A DNA stretch of 6,207 nt. It comes from a virus. Taxonomy: Duplodnaviria; Heunggongvirae; Uroviricota; Caudoviricetes. The stretch is taken from IMG/VR virus record IMGVR_UViG_2711768060_000006; one strand, written 5' to 3'. The translations under genes and the position numbers were made by a program. The notes under the pieces were generated by a model. The model made no database searches. It saw nothing but the letters and a program-made list of their open reading frames with translations, and had not been told where the DNA came from. This document shows, one piece after another, positions 1 to 6,207 of this stretch (its first letter is position 1; the number at the start of each line of letters is the position of its first letter).

Positions 1-235
<235 letters not shown>

Positions 236-236
236 C

Positions 237-295
<59 letters not shown>

Positions 296-417
296 GCAGA
301 TCACATCAGGTTATGTTTCGTTTGTCATCAACCTCAAATTATCAATATAATTCATTTTATTTCAATAAGATAGATAATCACACCTGAGAGAACTATTCTC
401 TTGTCTCCTAAGAGTTG

Positions 418-446
418 TTGCATTTTGTCATATGTTACAATATAAC
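418..446 (+). promoter_or_regulatory. Putative sigma70 promoter of zinT
   Basis: -35 TTGCAT at 418-423, 17-bp spacer, -10 TATAAC at 441-446; located about 40 nt upstream of the zinT start and overlapped by the Zur palindrome. Confidence 0.5.
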
Positions 447-452
447 ATTACA
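428..452. promoter_or_regulatory. Zur box (zinc uptake regulator operator) overlapping the zinT -10
   Basis: Palindrome ATGTTA-caata-TAACAT at 432-448 (atgttacaatataacat), matching the core of the Zur operator consensus (GAAATGTTATAnTATAACATTTC) and placed directly upstream of zinT, a known Zur-regulon gene. Confidence 0.75.
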
Positions 453-484
453 TATCATATACAATGACTCTGGAGGAAACTGTT

Positions 485-1135
485 TTGGCGATTCGTCTTC
501 ACAAACTGGCTGTTGCTTTAGGTGTCTTTATTGTTAGCGCTCCTGCTTTTTCGCATGGTCATCACTCACACGGCAAACCCTTAACAGAGGTCGAACAAAA
601 AGCTGCTAATGGTGTTTTTGATGATGCCAATGTACAAAACCGAAAGCTCAGTGACTGGGATGGAGTCTGGCAATCCGTTTATCCTTTACTGCAAAGTGGC
701 AAACTTGACCCTGTATTTCAGAAGAAAGCGGATGCAGATAAAACTAAAACATTTGCTGAAATTAAAGATTATTATCACAAAGGTTATGCAACAGATATCG
801 AGATGATTGGCATTGAGGACGGCATTGTTGAATTCCATAGAAATAATGAAACAACATCCTGTAAATATGATTACGATGGATACAAAATACTCACCTATAA
901 ATCAGGCAAGAAAGGCGTTCGTTACTTATTCGAATGTAAAGATCCTGAAAGCAAAGCCCCTAAATATATACAATTTAGTGATCATATAATTGCACCACGA
1001 AAATCATCTCATTTTCACATTTTTATGGGTAATGATTCACAGCAATCTTTATTAAATGAAATGGAAAACTGGCCAACGTATTATCCATATCAGTTGAGTA
1101 GCGAAGAAGTGGTCGAGGAAATGATGTCTCATTGA
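485..1135 (+). CDS. zinT: ZinT (YodA) periplasmic zinc/cadmium-binding protein
   Basis: The translation matches ZinT/YodA over its full length as I recall it: signal peptide followed by the His-rich [24 protein letters not shown] stretch and the C-terminal ...[17 protein letters not shown]. Start chosen as TTG at 485 (216 aa) because GGAGG at 472-476 sits 8 nt upstream; the ORF-track ATG at 464 has no Shine-Dalgarno and would add 7 residues. Confidence 0.9.
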
Positions 1136-1477
1136 GTATTCTCATGATAACGCCTCGATGCCGCTTTAGTAAGTCATCATAACTGCCACTGGTCCATCCA
1201 CAAACGCCACTGAACGCAAGCTAGCTACAGACACGCTCATCACTATGACGTGTCTGTATATTAATAAGCTAACCCGCATTGAGTTAACCAATAACGGATT
1301 CCATACACAATACGGCCAACAGAGAAAGATACCTGTGCTCACGCCATTGCTTATATTGGCTGGTTACAATGTGCACTATCAATTTTTTAAATAACAAATT
1401 CTTAAAACCACATCTGTATAAGGATTTTTTAAGGTTCGTGGGATAGCTTGACTGTAAAAATTACAGGAGCTACAAAA

Positions 1478-2008
1478 ATGAACCGATTCTCAAAAACTCA
1501 AATTTATTTACATTGGATAACGCTGCTTTTCGTTGCAATAACCTATGCCGCGATGGAACTCCGTGGCTGGTTTCCTAAAGGTAGTAGTACTTATCTGCTG
1601 ATGCGAGAAACACATTACAATGCGGGTATATTCGTTTGGGTGTTAATGTTTTCACGCCTGATTATAAAACACCGTTATAGTGATCCTTCTATTGTGCCAC
1701 CGCCACCTGCCTGGCAAATGAAAGCGGCTTCGCTAATGCACATCATGCTTTATATAACCTTCCTTGCACTTCCTCTGCTGGGGATTGCTTTGATGGCTTA
1801 CAGTGGAAAATCGTGGAGTTTCCTTGGTTTCAATGTGTCTCCCTTTGTTACCCCAAACAGCGAAATTAAAGCACTGATAAAAAATATTCACGAAACCTGG
1901 GCAAATATAGGTTACTTTTTAATCGCAGCTCACGCTGGCGCAGCACTCTTTCATCACTACATTCAGAAAGATAATACTCTGTTACGAATGATGCCTCGCC
2001 GCAAATAA
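1478..2008 (+). CDS. yodB: YodB, cytochrome b561-family inner-membrane protein
   Basis: 176-aa product MNRFSKTQIYLHWITLLFVAITYAAMEL... with several hydrophobic helices and conserved His residues, typical of the cytochrome b561 / Ni-hydrogenase cytochrome b family; immediately downstream of zinT as in E. coli. ATG at 1478 is preceded by AGGAG at 1465-1469; the ORF-track TTG at 1448 is an upstream in-frame alternative without an RBS. Confidence 0.88.
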   Translation: MNRFSKTQIYLHWITLLFVAITYAAMELRGWFPKGSSTYLLMRETHYNAGIFVWVLMFSRLIIKHRYSDPSIVPPPPAWQMKAASLMHIMLYITFLALPLLGIALMAYSGKSWSFLGFNVSPFVTPNSEIKALIKNIHETWANIGYFLIAAHAGAALFHHYIQKDNTLLRMMPRRK

Positions 2009-2257
2009 GTCGATCCCCTGACAAGGAAATGTGAACCATGGACATCAACGCGTCATAAATGTTTACGCAAGTGCACAATGCACCCTTTCCACTATCAACA
2101 AGGAGGAGCAGAAACTGTGTAAATCGTACAATGGTAAGACTTATCAAAAATACAGGTTAATTTTGGTATTTAAACCTTTTTTACTTGTTAGTATGATACA
2201 AAGGCTTTCAAAAAAGCTGGGAAATTCAACAACTCTTGGAAATTATGGACTTTGTCC

Positions 2258-2291
2258 CGCGGCTTTAATCTGACGGCCGCGTTCCTTTTTT
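2258..2291 (+). terminator. Putative rho-independent terminator in the yodB-tRNA intergenic region
   Basis: Stem cgcggc(2258-2263)/gccgcg(2276-2281) with a 12-nt loop, followed by ttccttttttg (2282-2292). Lies about 250 nt downstream of the yodB stop. Confidence 0.4.
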
Positions 2292-2577
2292 GACTCAATT
2301 ATTGACCCCTTCTCTACGCAACTTCAGTTCCCACCACCAACTTTGCGGCAGTTTCATAGGATGAATGTCTAAAAGAATAATGGTGAGCGATAAGAAAACG
2401 ACTGAATAACTGCACATTTTCGCTCGAAAGCTTCCTGTCAGATCCATAGCGAATCAAGTGCTGAATGTCACAGTATCGAACAGAAAACAGTGACGATCTA
2501 ACCCTTCAAGAATATTCTACGATTGTTCTGTTTAGGAAAAGCAAGGCGGGAAGTCGGGAGATAAGTCATTGATAAAG

Positions 2578-2639
2578 TGGCGGAGAGAGGGGGATTTGAA
2601 CCCCCGGTAGAGTTGCCCCTACTCCGGTTTTCGAGACCG
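2578..2639 (-). other. Truncated tRNA-Ser(CGA) (serU-type) 3' portion, 62 nt: anticodon stem-loop through CCA; putative attachment-site core (attL) of the adjacent P2-like element
   Basis: The reverse complement of 2578-2639 reads cggtctCGAaaaccgg-agtaggggcaactctac-cgggggttcaaatccccc-tctctcc-g-cca: anticodon loop with CGA, long type-II variable arm, T-arm GGTTCAAATCC, 3' acceptor strand and CCA. The 28 nt that should hold the 5' acceptor strand and D-arm (2640-2667 = atgatatagagtcgaaaaaacaaagagt) cannot pair with the acceptor 3' strand, so the gene is not intact here. Confidence 0.8.
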
Positions 2640-2938
2640 ATGATATAGAGTCGAAAAAACAAAGAGTTAATAATTTTTCTTGGAATAAATGTCTTAAAAT
2701 CGTACACAAAAAATCAATGAATTACATAACATTAAAGAAGAATATTCCAAGCCTTCTTGAGTCCACCACCTGTTTTCAGGTGTCATTCAGACGTGATTTG
2801 CCCCAGATTGGGAAAGCACGCTTTTTTCTCAGCTTATTCCGTTTTGCCTGTGTGTTGAATAATTCCACTGCAGTTATATAAAATCGGTAACGGCTGGAAA
2901 TCATTCAATACTCGCACTATCGAACGTTCACCAGCCAG

Positions 2939-2971
2939 CCGCGACACGTTCTCTCAGTTAACGTGTCGCGG
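2939..2971. repeat. Perfect 12-bp inverted repeat (stem-loop) immediately 3' of the 131-aa gene
   Basis: ccgcgacacgtt(2939-2950) - 9-nt loop ctctcagtt - aacgtgtcgcgg(2960-2971); on the + strand it is followed by tttctatt. The stop codon of the - strand 131-aa gene (2978-2980) is 6 nt away. Could be the late-operon terminator or a protein-binding palindrome. Confidence 0.45.
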
Positions 2972-2977
2972 TTTCTA

Positions 2978-3373
2978 TTACTCCAGCCTGAAATCCCTAA
3001 TCGACTTCAAATCCTCCAGGTTATTCAGTTCTTCCTTCATCTCCCGCTGACGCTGATAAATCTCGTTGTTGCGATCGACCTGCGCATGCGCCACCATTTC
3101 CTCAAAGCGTTTCACTACATCCGGCTTTAAATCGCCTTCATCAAGGGCAGTCAGAAAATCGTTCAGCGTGCCGGACCTGGAGTCGTCGTAAACCGAAATA
3201 TCACCGACACAATATTCTCTTTCAATACACGACCGAAGATAAACATCATATCTTCCGGTCTGTGCTTCAAAAGCATATTCTCCCGTCGGCCCTGTCACCA
3301 CTGTAGCCACCGTTCTCATGACCACTGCAGATGTATTCTGCCGGGCTTTCAGAATAATATGGTATCCGGACAT
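2978..3373 (-). CDS. Hypothetical protein, 131 aa, family not recognised; occupies the position between tail gene D and the attachment site
   Basis: ATG at 3371-3373 preceded by AGGA 6 nt upstream, 15 nt after the D stop and in the same frame. Product MSGYHIILKARQNTSAVVMRTVATVVTGPTGEYAFEAQ... has a beta-rich-looking N-terminal half and an acidic, probably coiled-coil C-terminal tail (EEMVAHAQVDRNNEIYQRQREMKEELNNLEDLKSIRDFRLE). Only two Cys, so it is not an Ogr/Delta zinc finger. Confidence 0.65.
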   Translation of the reverse strand: MSGYHIILKARQNTSAVVMRTVATVVTGPTGEYAFEAQTGRYDVYLRSCIEREYCVGDISVYDDSRSGTLNDFLTALDEGDLKPDVVKRFEEMVAHAQVDRNNEIYQRQREMKEELNNLEDLKSIRDFRLE

Positions 3374-3388
3374 GGGGAGTCCTGCACA

Positions 3389-4489
3389 TTAACCAAAATA
3401 ATTCACGCCCTTTTTATCCGCTTTCTTCTTCCCTGATGCCTGTCCTTTCGCGGAAATATCCGTGGCCAGCGACAGATTCAGCGTAAATCCCTGCCCCGGT
3501 GCCAGTGAAAACTCCACCGACTCAGCCTGCCAGTTATGATCTTCCCGTACCCCAAATCCCTGCGTGATAAAACGCATTTCCGCCCCAGCTTTCAGCAGTG
3601 CTGGTCTGCAGGGCAACGTTATCGTCATCTGGCGTCCGGCTTTCTGCACACGTTTAACCTTAGAGTCTGCGCAGTGTTTTGCTGTATCCTGATCCGGCTG
3701 AGTGAATGGATGTCGCTTGTCTGTGGACTCCACATCCACTTTAACTTCACGCGTGCGTCCGTCACGGGTATCAAAATACCGGACACCCACTTTCCCTTTT
3801 TTTGTTGTTCCTTTTCCGCCTCCGGATGCTCCCTGCCGCTCCCCCTCCCGGTAATCCCAGTCTGATACCATATCCGGTGTGATGGTCATTACAGGCGCAT
3901 CCCTGCCGCCTGCGCTCTGTGATGCGCCATACTCCAGAAATAACCAGTAGCCGTTCGTCGGTTTACTGGTGGCACCATACATACCTGCAAGCCGGGACAG
4001 CAGGGACGCATCCGATTCAGATGACTGCATCACCCACGGGATACGAATTTTTGCCAGCGCCGGTGAGACCCGCGCCACCAGATTATTTTCAGTGGCGATC
4101 GTTTTCACCAGGTCGCCCAGTGTGATATCGCTGAACGCGCGGGTTTTCAGTGCGGTCACGTCTGCGCCATGTTTTGACGCATTCATGGGGGCTGCGGTGG
4201 CATAAATGGTTATCCGGCGGGGAGGGCCACCGCTTGCCACCTGGCAGACTGTAAAACTGCCTTTATTCACCAGATTTCCGTTAAATCCCAGCCCCAGCGT
4301 CAATACCGCGCCTTTCGGCGGCAACGCCATCTTCTCACTGAACAGCGTTATCATCAGTTCATCGGCCCGCTTTGTGGCCGCACCATTATCGGTATAACGC
4401 AGTTCAGCCAGCCCCCGCTTTATGGCCTTCGTGATATCCTCACCCTCTGCTGTCAGGCTGAAATCCGGCTGATACTCATTCAGTCCCAT
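3389..4489 (-). CDS. D: Phage late control gene D protein (P2 gpD family tail protein)
   Basis: 366-aa product with the gpD-family architecture (N-terminal ...PDFSLTAEGEDITKAI..., Gly/Lys-rich middle, C-terminal ...ITLPCRPALLKAGAEMRFITQGFG...). Strong RBS AAGGAGG upstream of the ATG at 4487-4489; sits downstream of U and X as in P2-like tail modules. Confidence 0.88.
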   Translation of the reverse strand: MGLNEYQPDFSLTAEGEDITKAIKRGLAELRYTDNGAATKRADELMITLFSEKMALPPKGAVLTLGLGFNGNLVNKGSFTVCQVASGGPPRRITIYATAAPMNASKHGADVTALKTRAFSDITLGDLVKTIATENNLVARVSPALAKIRIPWVMQSSESDASLLSRLAGMYGATSKPTNGYWLFLEYGASQSAGGRDAPVMTITPDMVSDWDYREGERQGASGGGKGTTKKGKVGVRYFDTRDGRTREVKVDVESTDKRHPFTQPDQDTAKHCADSKVKRVQKAGRQMTITLPCRPALLKAGAEMRFITQGFGVREDHNWQAESVEFSLAPGQGFTLNLSLATDISAKGQASGKKKADKKGVNYFG

Positions 4490-4698
4490 AACTGAAACGC
4501 CTCCTTTTCCTCCGGTTCATACACCCAGTCCGGCAACACGATTTCCACACCTGCCGGATAGACCGGACCAAGGTCAGCCAGTCCGGGATTAGCCTCCAGC
4601 ACCGCCGCCAGTGACTGGTTAAGTCCGGCGCTGCCATAGTGTCTCTGACAGATATCATCCAGCATATCGCCGTCAGTGGTCCGCCAGTTTTTCGCCAT
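4480..4698 (-). CDS. X: Phage tail protein X (P2 gpX family, LysM-like)
   Basis: 72-aa product MAKNWRTTDGDMLDDICQRHYG...LEANPGLADLGPVYPAGVEIVLPD follows the gpX pattern (GDTLDxIC..YYG...ANPGLAxLG...G..i.LP) as I recall it. Start overlaps the 3' end of U by 26 nt; stop overlaps the D start by 10 nt. Confidence 0.8.
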   Translation of the reverse strand: MAKNWRTTDGDMLDDICQRHYGSAGLNQSLAAVLEANPGLADLGPVYPAGVEIVLPDWVYEPEEKEAFQLWD

Positions 4699-5167
4699 AG
4701 TATTTCAGCTCCAGTGTGAACGTTTTGTTCTTCGGCGCACCGCCGGGAAGAAAGGACGTGGTGTTATCTGAATAAGCGGTTGCCACGAAATACCCCATCA
4801 CATCACCTGTGCTCGAGACCAGAAGATGCGGGGCCGGATTGTCATCCACCATCTGAACCAGTGTATCAAGGGCATCCATTCCCACACCGTCACGAAATCC
4901 CGCGTGCGCCATACCTTCAAGGGTTATTGTTCTGGCCCCCTTGCCGGTATACTGCAGCAGGTCGTTTTTTCCGATAAGCTGTTGTTCATCCCATCGCCAT
5001 TCCATCGTGCGCTTCATGGCGTTATAAGCAGCAGTATCAATACTGAATTCAAACTCACCAAACGACAGCATGACGCGGGAGGCGACATCCGTTAATGATC
5101 CCACCGCGTCCCATGCTTCACGCTCAAGCCGGTTTACGCCCCAGCCTGGCAAATCCACCATCTTCAC
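4673..5167 (-). CDS. U: Phage tail protein U (P2 gpU family)
   Basis: 164-aa product with gpU-family motifs (...FEFSIDTAAYNAMKRTMEWRWDEQQLIGKNDLLQYTGKGARTITLEG...). The GTG start at 5165-5167 overlaps the T stop (GTGA); the first ATG is two codons in, at 5159-5161. Confidence 0.82.
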   Translation of the reverse strand: MKMVDLPGWGVNRLEREAWDAVGSLTDVASRVMLSFGEFEFSIDTAAYNAMKRTMEWRWDEQQLIGKNDLLQYTGKGARTITLEGMAHAGFRDGVGMDALDTLVQMVDDNPAPHLLVSSTGDVMGYFVATAYSDNTTSFLPGGAPKNKTFTLELKYYGEKLADH

Positions 5168-6207
5168 CCCCAGAATGCATCACCATCGGTCATGCGGGAA
5201 CGCTGACCAAAATTAATATCTCCCAGATTTTTCGTTACCCTGTCTGCCAGTTGTCCGGCATCCTCGCCGGGCTTCTGAGTGATGTTAAATTCCGCCCGTA
5301 TCTGATATGTGGGTTTTACTTCCACCTGGCTGACACTGCCGGGTGTATACTGAAGAGCTGAGAGGGGATCCGAATTACCCTGCCCCGGATCTGCTGCATG
5401 AAGTCCGTCAATGTAGGTGCGGGATTTCTCTTTTATCGCCTTAAAATCAGGTTCTTCTTTCGGCCCCAGCAGAGGGTCGAGAAATGCATCAAACTTTTTA
5501 TCGTCATGATTCCAGGGGAGATAACCGCGGGTGTCTTTATAAGCCTGTACAACCTGTTTCGTCAGGTCCGGATTTTGCCTGAGCAGTTCATCAAACCATT
5601 CTCCCTGGCCGTTTTTCTGCGCCACCGCTCTCGCCAGCTCCGGCGCCCCCATTTTTGCCAGATATTCCAGTACCTCTCGCCGGTCCTGACGCGGATCATC
5701 TGCCAGCCCCCACTCAATGGCTTTCTGCGTTATTCCAGCCAGAACTTTTCCAAATTTCCACATCCAGGCAGCCATGTCGATCAGCGCCGGCAGGGCATCA
5801 TCACGAATAAATGCCCGGATTTTTTCCAGCCCACCATTCTTAAACCAGGCCGCAAGGTCATCCGTCACCTGTTGAATATGTGGGGCAAGTTCATTACCCA
5901 GCTGCCCGCTGATTTCATCAATGGAAGAACTCAGAACATTACGGAGATTTGACAGTGCCACATGTCCCTGAACTGCGCCATCAGCCCCTGCCTTTGTCAC
6001 CAGGTTATAGCGTTTCTGCTCACTGATAAGCTCCCGGTAAGTTTTCCCTGACAGACGCATCCAGGTCAGAATTTTATTGGCCTCACCACCGAACAACGCA
6101 TCTGCCATCCCGGCTGCCTGCTGCTCATTCTCCACCTGCAGTAAGCGATCAAACAAAAGTTCGACCTGCTCCTGGTTGTTTTTTCCGGCCATCACCCCGG
6201 CTTTCAG
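5164..6207 (-). CDS. T: Phage tail tape measure protein, C-terminal part (P2 gpT-like); 5' end lies beyond the window
   Basis: Reading frame open from the right window edge to TGA at 5164-5166; at least 347 codons in window. Product is a large, helix-rich, Ala/Gln/Leu-rich protein immediately upstream of U, the expected position of the tape measure. The ORF-track start at 6195 is only the first in-window start codon. Confidence 0.82.
   Translation of the reverse strand: MKAGVMAGKNNQEQVELLFDRLLQVENEQQAAGMADALFGGEANKILTWMRLSGKTYRELISEQKRYNLVTKAGADGAVQGHVALSNLRNVLSSSIDEISGQLGNELAPHIQQVTDDLAAWFKNGGLEKIRAFIRDDALPALIDMAAWMWKFGKVLAGITQKAIEWGLADDPRQDRREVLEYLAKMGAPELARAVAQKNGQGEWFDELLRQNPDLTKQVVQAYKDTRGYLPWNHDDKKFDAFLDPLLGPKEEPDFKAIKEKSRTYIDGLHAADPGQGNSDPLSALQYTPGSVSQVEVKPTYQIRAEFNITQKPGEDAGQLADRVTKNLGDINFGQRSRMTDGDAFWG

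Follow-up and report, generated by a model that had tools for sequence, protein, structure and literature searches.

The attachment site of phage lambda is acted on by a heterobivalent integrase (Int) and contains the arm-type sites P1, P2 and P'1-3 together with IHF sites; two arm-type sites and a bending site lie in the distal arm, and three sites are arranged in tandem next to int. The N-terminal region of lambda Int is its arm-binding domain. For many integrases that target tRNA genes, the core-type sites are provided by the symmetric anticodon stem, and the 7-nt loop serves as the overlap region.

The tRNA gene serU is a recognised prophage locus, and in the serU prophages of STEC O145:H28 segments are often replaced (PMC7067040). 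The locus already serves to classify Escherichia coli prophages, including those of Shiga-toxin- and LT-II-converting phages. In the GenBank record of Escherichia phage SerU-LTIIb (KU052038.1, partial), the same 62-nt pseudo tRNA-Ser as the fragment described here is annotated next to yodB. The stretch of DNA that we analysed, called the window below, is the complete 6,207-bp contig CXYG01000051.1 of the draft assembly GCA_001269325.1 and represents E. coli chromosome. We consider it very probable that positions 2578-2639 of the window form an attR-type junction of a temperate phage in serU, made by lambda-type site-specific recombination. As such, it is a textbook case of a phage entering the 3' part of a tRNA gene by the classical lambda-type mechanism. 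The junction feature is already known from the KU052038.1 annotation and there is very little new in it; the practical use of the comparison lies in annotation, since it sets the prophage boundary to the nucleotide, at 2639/2640.

SerU-LTIIb shares with the window the site and the scar, and a side-fibre/assembly gene pair precedes its pseudo-tRNA. Unlike the window, it is a lambdoid toxin-converting (LT-IIb enterotoxin) prophage with intact fibre genes and no P2-type tail. The serU prophages of strains A19, EC7518, E9 and C311 have a core boundary identical to that of the window and an arm 96-99% identical to the one found here, whereas the prophage bodies differ by strain, that of A19 being a hybrid of myovirus type and those of EC7518, E9 and C311 lambdoid. 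The fibre cassette also differs: it is absent from A19, intact in the other serU prophages, and present as a 131-aa fusion in the window. The free temperate phages Chris1 (Citrobacter) and KpF5 (Klebsiella) resemble the window in that the same 62-nt core lies beside the integrase gene in their attP, but their arms are unrelated, their hosts belong to other genera, and the integrase of Chris1 is larger.

For the comparison with lambda itself, the integrase is that of the analogous lysogens. It aligns with lambda Int from end to end, the arm-binding N-terminus included. Three tandem repeats next to int, two repeats in the distal arm and an IHF consensus between these two would, as candidate sites, correspond to the lambda layout. 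The differences are that the target here is a tRNA gene and in lambda the gal-bio intergenic attB, that the identity block measures 62 nt here and 15 bp in lambda, that the analogue integrase has a Lys where lambda has R311, and that the candidate arm motif is CTTGGAATA and not the lambda arm consensus.

The serU fragment and the host chromosome

The reverse complement of 2578-2639 reads CGGTCTCGAAAACCGGAGTAGGGGCAACTCTACCGGGGGTTCAAATCCCCCTCTCTCCGCCA; all 62 of its positions agree with K-12 serU, nt 29-90 by linear count. K-12 serU encodes tRNA-Ser(CGA), and the fragment represents its last 62 nt: it starts at the second base in the 5' strand of the anticodon stem, takes in the CGA anticodon (window 2631-2633) as well as the variable and T arms, and ends with CCA. 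This agrees with the initial annotation, which had described the feature, from the sequence alone, as a 62-nt 3' part of a tRNA-Ser(CGA) reaching from the anticodon stem to CCA. Because the 62/62 identity sits in conserved synteny, a chance match is of no concern.

The 28 nt that stand in the place of the acceptor 5' strand and the D arm (2640-2667) were unrelated to serU, as had also been claimed. ARAGORN predicted no tRNA genes in the window, and the Rfam search of the window gave no tRNA match, only sub-threshold noise; the window contains no complete tRNA. The best Rfam match, Plastid-psbl-rps4, was rejected, as it was sub-threshold and corresponded to the antisense of the tRNA arms. A functional tRNA would fold into a full cloverleaf that includes the acceptor stem and the D arm, and here the 5' 28 nt are missing. 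Positions 2578-2639 are a pseudo-tRNA, or attR core, and not a gene, and this label is the one that the tRNA-like stretch should carry in an annotation.

Over its host part, the window was compared with K-12, in which zinT, yodB, the spacer and serU (90 nt, minus strand) are followed by mtfA. BLAST of the window against this region returned one block, 293-2639, at 98.4% identity, with its end exactly at 2639. K-12 hence represents the empty site that had been predicted, with yodB, an intact serU and mtfA, and with homology to the window that stops at the core boundary. The GC content was 38.5% for 2640-2977, 33.5% for 2640-2830 and 47.3% for the whole window, in line with the claim that AT-rich DNA replaces the 5' half of the tRNA gene. 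However, AT-richness alone is not a boundary marker, because the host spacer at 2000-2299, with a GC content of 36-37.5%, is as AT-rich as the phage side. A promoter and terminator scan of 2000-3400 gave no signal exceeding chance.

Table 1. Positions of host, junction and phage features in the 6,207-bp window
Feature	Position	Strand	Basis or remark
IS621, 3' end	1-292		Copy at the left edge of the window
zinT	464-1135		Pfam
yodB	1478-2008	+	Pfam Ni_hydr_CYTB; 98.4% collinear with K-12
yodB-serU spacer, 569 bp	to 2577		Original chromosomal flank downstream of serU
serU 3' fragment	2578-2639	-	62/62 identity to K-12 serU
Strand-exchange segment	2621-2639	-	tRNA nt 29-47, CGGTCTCGAAAACCGGAGT; anticodon stem-loop with the 7-nt loop CTCGAAA
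Non-coding DNA, 338 bp	2640-2977		Phage side of the junction
Conserved attachment arm (P-arm type)	2640-2757		Common to all serU prophages compared
Candidate arm-type site, core-proximal	2679-2687	+	Exact 9-mer CTTGGAATA
IHF-consensus match	2712-2724	+	AATCAATGAATTA (WATCAANNNNTTR); between the two CTTGGAATA motifs
Candidate arm-type site, distal, inverted	2743-2751	-	Exact CTTGGAATA; inverted repeat I1
Further phage non-coding DNA	2758-2834		In A19 (to 2827) and in ev099, PhiR70_1 and mEp332 (to 2834), not in SerU-LTIIb
3' flank of the tail-fibre-assembly cassette	2835-2977		Outside the conserved arm
131-aa remnant ORF	2978-3373	-	Side tail fibre N-terminus fused to fibre-assembly C-terminus
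P2 gpD-type tail/baseplate hub protein, 366 aa	3389-4489	-	Pfam Phage_GPD, E = 4e-6, under the gathering cut-off
Tail protein X, 72 aa	4480-4698	-	Pfam Phage_tail_X, E = 3e-19
P2 gpU-type tail protein	4673-5167	-	Pfam Phage_P2_GpU, E = 3e-27
Tape measure protein, C-terminal part	5164-6207	-	Gene runs off the contig; no Pfam match

Lysogens, free phages and the crossover segment

The distribution of the junction was determined in 5,426 complete E. coli genomes with a 331-bp probe (window 2500-2830), for which presence was defined as a coverage of at least 80%. The probe was present in 703 of these genomes. Among the matches listed, the genomes with a tRNA-Ser annotated under the match aligned only up to 2639, and the number of copies of the region was two in both lysogens and one in the empty-site genomes.

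Three lysogens (A19, EC7518 and C311) were checked end to end. The results showed that: (i) all three have the same yodB-side junction, with prophages of 40-48 kb, and (ii) their far end consists of an intact 90-nt serU and a tyrosine integrase gene, followed by mtfA. The intact tRNA gene and integrase gene that the initial annotation had predicted for the far end were therefore found in analogous lysogens, and the source strain of the window presumably carries a matching far end. In A19, the prophage measures 47.6 kb, and its order is mtfA, intact serU, int, DUF4224, exonuclease, lambdoid early genes, lysis genes, lambda-type terminase and head genes, P2-type sheath, tube and baseplate genes, T-U-X-D, arm, serU fragment and yodB; the tail genes are 85-94% identical to those of the window. 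Both ends are the same in EC7518 and C311, where they enclose a lambdoid siphovirus prophage and a Stx1d-converting lambdoid siphovirus prophage, respectively. The initial annotation had spoken of a 'left' junction. The junction itself stands, but as the integrase-distal end it is attR by the lambda convention, which is a naming point only.

Free phages were searched for the corresponding attP. Chris1 (a circular complete genome) and KpF5 contain the identical 62-nt core with the same start nucleotide, about 50-90 bp from the integrase gene, and unrelated AT-rich DNA precedes the core. Since both phages carry this identical core, the 62-nt block is a genuine attP core of serU-targeting phages of several genera. 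The combination of this arm, the core and this int as one free-phage attP was not found in 50,697 phage records. The int query matched vB_EcoM-606R7 and vB_EcoS-689R5, which were rejected as attP sources because they are prophage extracts that include host DNA; vB_EcoM-606R7, the one of the two that was inspected, contains mtfA and HPI genes. The arm query matched only ev099, PhiR70_1 and mEp332 among the phage records. A 340-bp attP core in these phages was also rejected: it would include 278 bp of the E. coli yodB-serU spacer, a distance of about 2 kb separates the copy from a lambda-type int, and in the lysogens the true far ends share only about 62-78 nt with the junction. These three copies are fossil attR copies.

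The position of the crossover was narrowed down by comparing both ends. In all attR and attP sites examined, tRNA nt 29 is the first position of identity with the phage cores. At tRNA nt 48 and 59, the far-end (attL) serU of A19, EC7518 and C311 has G and C, whereas the yodB-side copy of the three lysogens and of the window has kept the A and T of the host (window 2620 and 2609). In the variable arm, the change from K-12 to the far end is from GTAGGGGCAACTCTAC to GTGGGGGCAACTCCAC, a compensated replacement of an A-T by a G-C pair. This difference between attL and attR indicates that the sequence 3' of tRNA nt 47 comes entirely from the phage where serU is intact. As identity starts at nt 29 and the alleles switch at nt 48, the crossover lies within nt 29-47; judged by these alignments, it must fall in the anticodon stem-loop segment (Table 1). 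This placement agrees with the general behaviour of tRNA-targeting integrases, by which the exchange would take place in the loop itself; the exact cleavage positions are likewise presumed. Beyond CCA, the two serU copies have a weak extra 16 nt in common (78 nt overall, 91%).

The far-end integrase of A19, EC7518 and C311 is encoded by one uninterrupted 340-aa ORF that includes the catalytic Tyr and stops roughly 55 bp short of the CCA end of serU. In the same three lysogens, PGAP places the end of its int feature 27 bp from the serU CCA and labels it 'frameshifted'; we rejected the reading as a pseudogene, as the ORF, catalytic Tyr included, is uninterrupted. The protein has the Phage_integrase and SAM-like/central domains. 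When compared with full-length lambda Int (PDB 1Z1B), it aligned from residue 1 (E = 2e-12), and the alignment takes in the MGRRR..LPPN N-terminus as well as the catalytic Tyr. Because the N-terminus aligns with the arm-binding region of lambda Int, arm-type sites are to be expected.

The attachment arm

The whole 338-bp stretch between the core and the first phage ORF had been claimed as the att arm. Of this, about 118-190 bp (2640 to approximately 2757-2830) stand as a P-type arm of the phage, whereas 2835-2977 belong to the flank of the tail-fibre module. In SerU-LTIIb, homology to the arm starts at the core, includes both CTTGGAATA motifs and ends shortly after the distal one (approximately 2755-2757), the arm being fully diverged beyond; the distal CTTGGAATA thereby defines how far outwards the arm is conserved with this phage. 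Positions 2835-2977 are absent from A19, in which gene D abuts 2827. Homology to the window ends at 2949 in EC7518 and at 2952 in C311, and a perfect 12-bp hairpin (2939-2950/2960-2971) is situated at these mosaic break points; in E9 the homology continues to 3093.

In the window alone, with one mismatch allowed, CTTGGAATA occurred twice against 1.5 occurrences expected, i.e. not above chance. In the 363-bp reconstructed attP, however, the 8-mer CTTGGAAT has five copies, two in this arm and three in tandem next to int, and only eight of 2000 dinucleotide shuffles of the 363-bp sequence yielded an 8-mer with as many copies. CTTGGAAT was absent from the 10-kb K-12 region, and about 175 kb from five lysogen loci contained only two occurrences beyond the att arms. 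Matches to the IHF consensus in the window numbered three, compared with 0.34 expected by chance. The match that lies between the two CTTGGAATA motifs is exact; it is kept in A19 and has one mismatch in SerU-LTIIb. On the basis of these motifs, we propose that both CTTGGAATA may be integrase arm-type sites and that 2712-2724 may be a bending-protein site; proteins would then presumably bind at the CTTGGAATA and IHF-consensus motifs.

The arm region also contains a 54-aa ORF at 2717-2881(+). It was rejected as a gene, having no Pfam match and being cut off in A19. A hypothetical protein is annotated in ev099 at the position of this ORF.

Tail genes and the origin of the junction

Phage DNA had been predicted from 2640 on, and the window indeed continues from there with the arm, followed by what is left of a tail-fibre gene and by tail genes of P2 type. 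The 131-aa ORF matched Pfam phage_tail_N with aa 1-100 (E = 4e-39), beginning at profile position 17, and its C-terminus corresponds, in frame, to the last approximately 35 aa of a DUF4376 tail-fibre-assembly protein. In comparison with the ETEC1730 and A36 prophages, window 3080-3376 represents the 5' part of stf and 3008-3093 the 3' end of tfa. The stf/tfa junction lies inside a common 14-nt repeat, CTGCGCCTGCGCCA, that codes for AQAQ in both genes; the fusion is in frame and terminates at the assembly gene's own stop codon. A second deletion, of 58 bp, has removed the native start of the fibre gene, its first 16 codons and the upstream spacer. The side-fibre cassette has thus been destroyed by two deletions, and the 131-aa ORF is a deletion remnant, not a normal gene, and should be annotated as such. 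The exact protein is on record only on CXYG01000051.1, the contig that forms the window. In this phage group the cassette is optional, being absent from A19 and intact in ETEC1730 and A36, and in related prophages at ompW and ssrA the side-fibre gene follows gene D.

The tail module of the element is contractile and of P2 type (T, U, X, D). The gpD homologues in related prophages are annotated as late control or VgrG-Pvc8 family proteins. The tape measure gene was assigned by position: in homologous prophages its slot is flanked by the tail assembly protein and gpU, and some of these prophages annotate it as tape measure. By analogy with A19, the element probably has lambda-type head and early genes as well. 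Its tail genes are of the T-U-(X)-D type of P2 (Peduovirus), but a P2-family prophage was rejected. The prophage end has no ogr, and a lambda-Stf-type fibre remnant adjoins gene D instead; the gpD match is under the Pfam cut-off; and the A19 analogue has lambda-like head, early and lysis genes together with a lambda-Int-like integrase.

The mosaic structure of the prophage bears on the question of which phage made the junction. C311 and the window are 99.6% identical over window 1-2952, the IS621 insertion included. C311 carries a Stx1d siphovirus at serU, and the identity breaks at 2952, inside phage DNA; the tail module may therefore not belong to the original phage that made the junction. 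The junction could instead stem from a lambdoid siphovirus-type serU phage resembling those of C311 and EC7518, with the P2-type tail arriving later by recombination within the prophage or between prophages. The fragment would then mark an old integration, and the present prophage could be rearranged or defective. This course of events would fit with the tail module being found at serU in only one of the 5,426 complete genomes (A19) and at other sites (ompW, ssrA) in about 74, with the two deletions in the fibre cassette, and with the frequent segment replacement published for serU prophages (PMC7067040). It would also fit with the att/int ends being common to very different bodies, namely a myovirus-type hybrid, lambdoid siphoviruses, a Stx1d phage and an LT-IIb phage. 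On the other hand, A19 carries at serU a complete prophage that combines this tail type with this att/int module, and the stf-tfa fusion is most simply explained as an internal deletion between 14-nt repeats in one cassette. We regard a later arrival of the tail as unlikely, though deserving consideration, and it leaves the identity of the fragment unchanged.

Two other origins of the fragment itself were weighed. If it were a serU pseudogene from a non-site-specific event, such as a deletion or an IS-mediated truncation, with phage DNA adjacent by chance, the IS621 end at the left edge and the lack of a visible integrase within the window would be in keeping with this. However, the IS621 end is 2.3 kb off, beyond zinT and yodB, the 703 genomes, SerU-LTIIb and the attP sites of the free Citrobacter and Klebsiella phages all have the break at the identical nucleotide, and analogous lysogens have the paired intact serU and integrase gene; an accidental truncation is hardly conceivable in view of this. 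It is equally implausible that the fragment was carried in as phage-borne cargo in the manner of the fossil copies: ev099, PhiR70_1 and mEp332 do contain window 2300-2834 with the 62-nt core, but the window is collinear with K-12 over 2.3 kb (293-2639), whereas these phages share only 278 bp of it and break at 2300.

The preferred explanation thus remains an attR-type junction left in serU by site-specific integration, and the following course can be proposed. The phage attP would carry a duplicate of the 3'-terminal 62 nt of serU, and a lambda-Int-like tyrosine integrase would swap strands within the anticodon stem-loop part of the identity block. Because the exchange takes place inside this block, integration would split serU. 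The 5' 28 nt of serU would be joined to the phage-borne 3' copy, giving an intact tRNA gene at the integrase end, beside mtfA, and the original 3' 62 nt would be left as a dead fragment between the other phage arm and the yodB flank. The P-type arm next to the fragment would contribute the two inverted CTTGGAATA motifs, with the IHF-consensus site between them, as putative parts of the excisive complex.

A more tentative suggestion, which we hold to be possible but somewhat doubtful, is that the element belongs to an uncharacterised and never-isolated lineage with lambda-type early and head genes, a contractile tail of P2 type, an optional lambda-Stf-type cassette and a lambda-Int-like integrase that has Lys for the second catalytic Arg and uses CTTGGAATA arm sites and the serU anticodon stem-loop. 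The tail module gave no megablast-level match against 50,697 phage genomes. In the same set, the closest gpD was that of Hafnia phage yong2 (51% aa identity), and the second was that of Chris1 (48% aa identity), the Citrobacter phage that also has the 62-nt core.

Fossil attR sites in free lambdoid phages

When phage genomes were compared with the window, a counterpart of positions 2300-2834 was found in three free lambdoid phages, namely ev099, PhiR70_1 and mEp332. This fossil attR contains the phage attachment arm, the 62-nt serU core and 278 bp of the E. coli yodB-serU spacer, and its boundaries are the same in 3/3 phages. It lies approximately 2 kb from the phages' own lambda-type int, with an AraC-family regulator and IS2 remnants as neighbours. 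The shared end points, the presence of host spacer and the common setting suggest that the fossil attR goes back to a single aberrant excision in an ancestor, by which host DNA was taken up.

Coordinates of features in the window and in related loci (L010, L007 and L014, lysogens; L012, L013 and L005, free phages)
Feature	Coordinates	Remark
IS621 (IS110 family) 3' end	window 1-292	inserted between msrQ and zinT
Far-end serU core	L010 3556-3617 (A19); L007 16852-16913 (EC7518); L014 1171-1232 (C311)	phage-supplied
serU-type integrase gene	L010 3645-4695 (A19); L007 16941-17991 (EC7518); L014 1260-2310 (C311)	
Fossil serU attR	L012 4723-5257 (ev099); L013 2067-2601 (PhiR70_1); L005 2051-2585 (mEp332)	
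131-aa ORF	window 2978-3373	adjoining stretch 3374-3388

serU alleles, displaced cores and the integrase

In the lysogens A19, EC7518 and C311, the phage-derived 3' part of the serU gene rebuilt at the far end of the prophage has a compensated change of one base pair in its variable arm (A->G at the counterpart of window 2620, T->C at that of window 2609). Owing to this change, the tRNA-Ser(CGA) expressed by lysogens differs slightly from that of non-lysogens. The displaced cores are decaying, as an unselected pseudo-tRNA would, with changes in the anticodon stem to CGTTCTCG in the C311 attR copy (L014 45901) and to CCGTCTCG in the mEp332 copy (L005). A sub-threshold Rfam match to Plastid-psbl-rps4 at window 2581-2632 (+; 40.9 bits, with the gathering score at 68) corresponds to the T and variable arms of tRNA-Ser read in antisense, and is an artefact of the Rfam model.

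Three repeats of CTTGGAAT, a candidate arm-type site, sit within the last codons of the serU-type integrase gene. PGAP labels this gene 'frameshifted' in three genomes, which is contradicted by a single 340-aa ORF that includes the catalytic Tyr. At the position of R311 in lambda Int, the serU-type integrase has Lys.

Mosaic structure and flanking elements

A perfect 12-bp hairpin (window 2939-2950 and 2960-2971) is located where the mosaic breaks at 2949 and 2952 fall, and window 2894-2952 matches Citrobacter phage Chris1 at 88%, close to the Chris1 DNA invertase gene. Window 2894-2971 may mark a module boundary on the downstream side of fibre-assembly genes. The 131-aa ORF joins a side tail fibre N-terminus in frame to a DUF4376 fibre-assembly C-terminus; the fusion arose through deletion between 14-nt repeats, and an additional 58-bp deletion removed the native start of the fibre part.

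The P2-type tail module (window 3389-6207) gave no megablast match among 50,697 phage records, in which the closest gpD was that of Hafnia phage yong2 (51% protein identity). About 74-164 complete E. coli genomes carry the module as a prophage, which occupies several att sites, among them ompW, ssrA and serU.

At least 80% of window 1-460 is covered by 28 complete E. coli genomes. The IS621 insertion is present at 100% identity in the best-matching 10 of the 28; the carriers include C311 and several STEC O91 strains.
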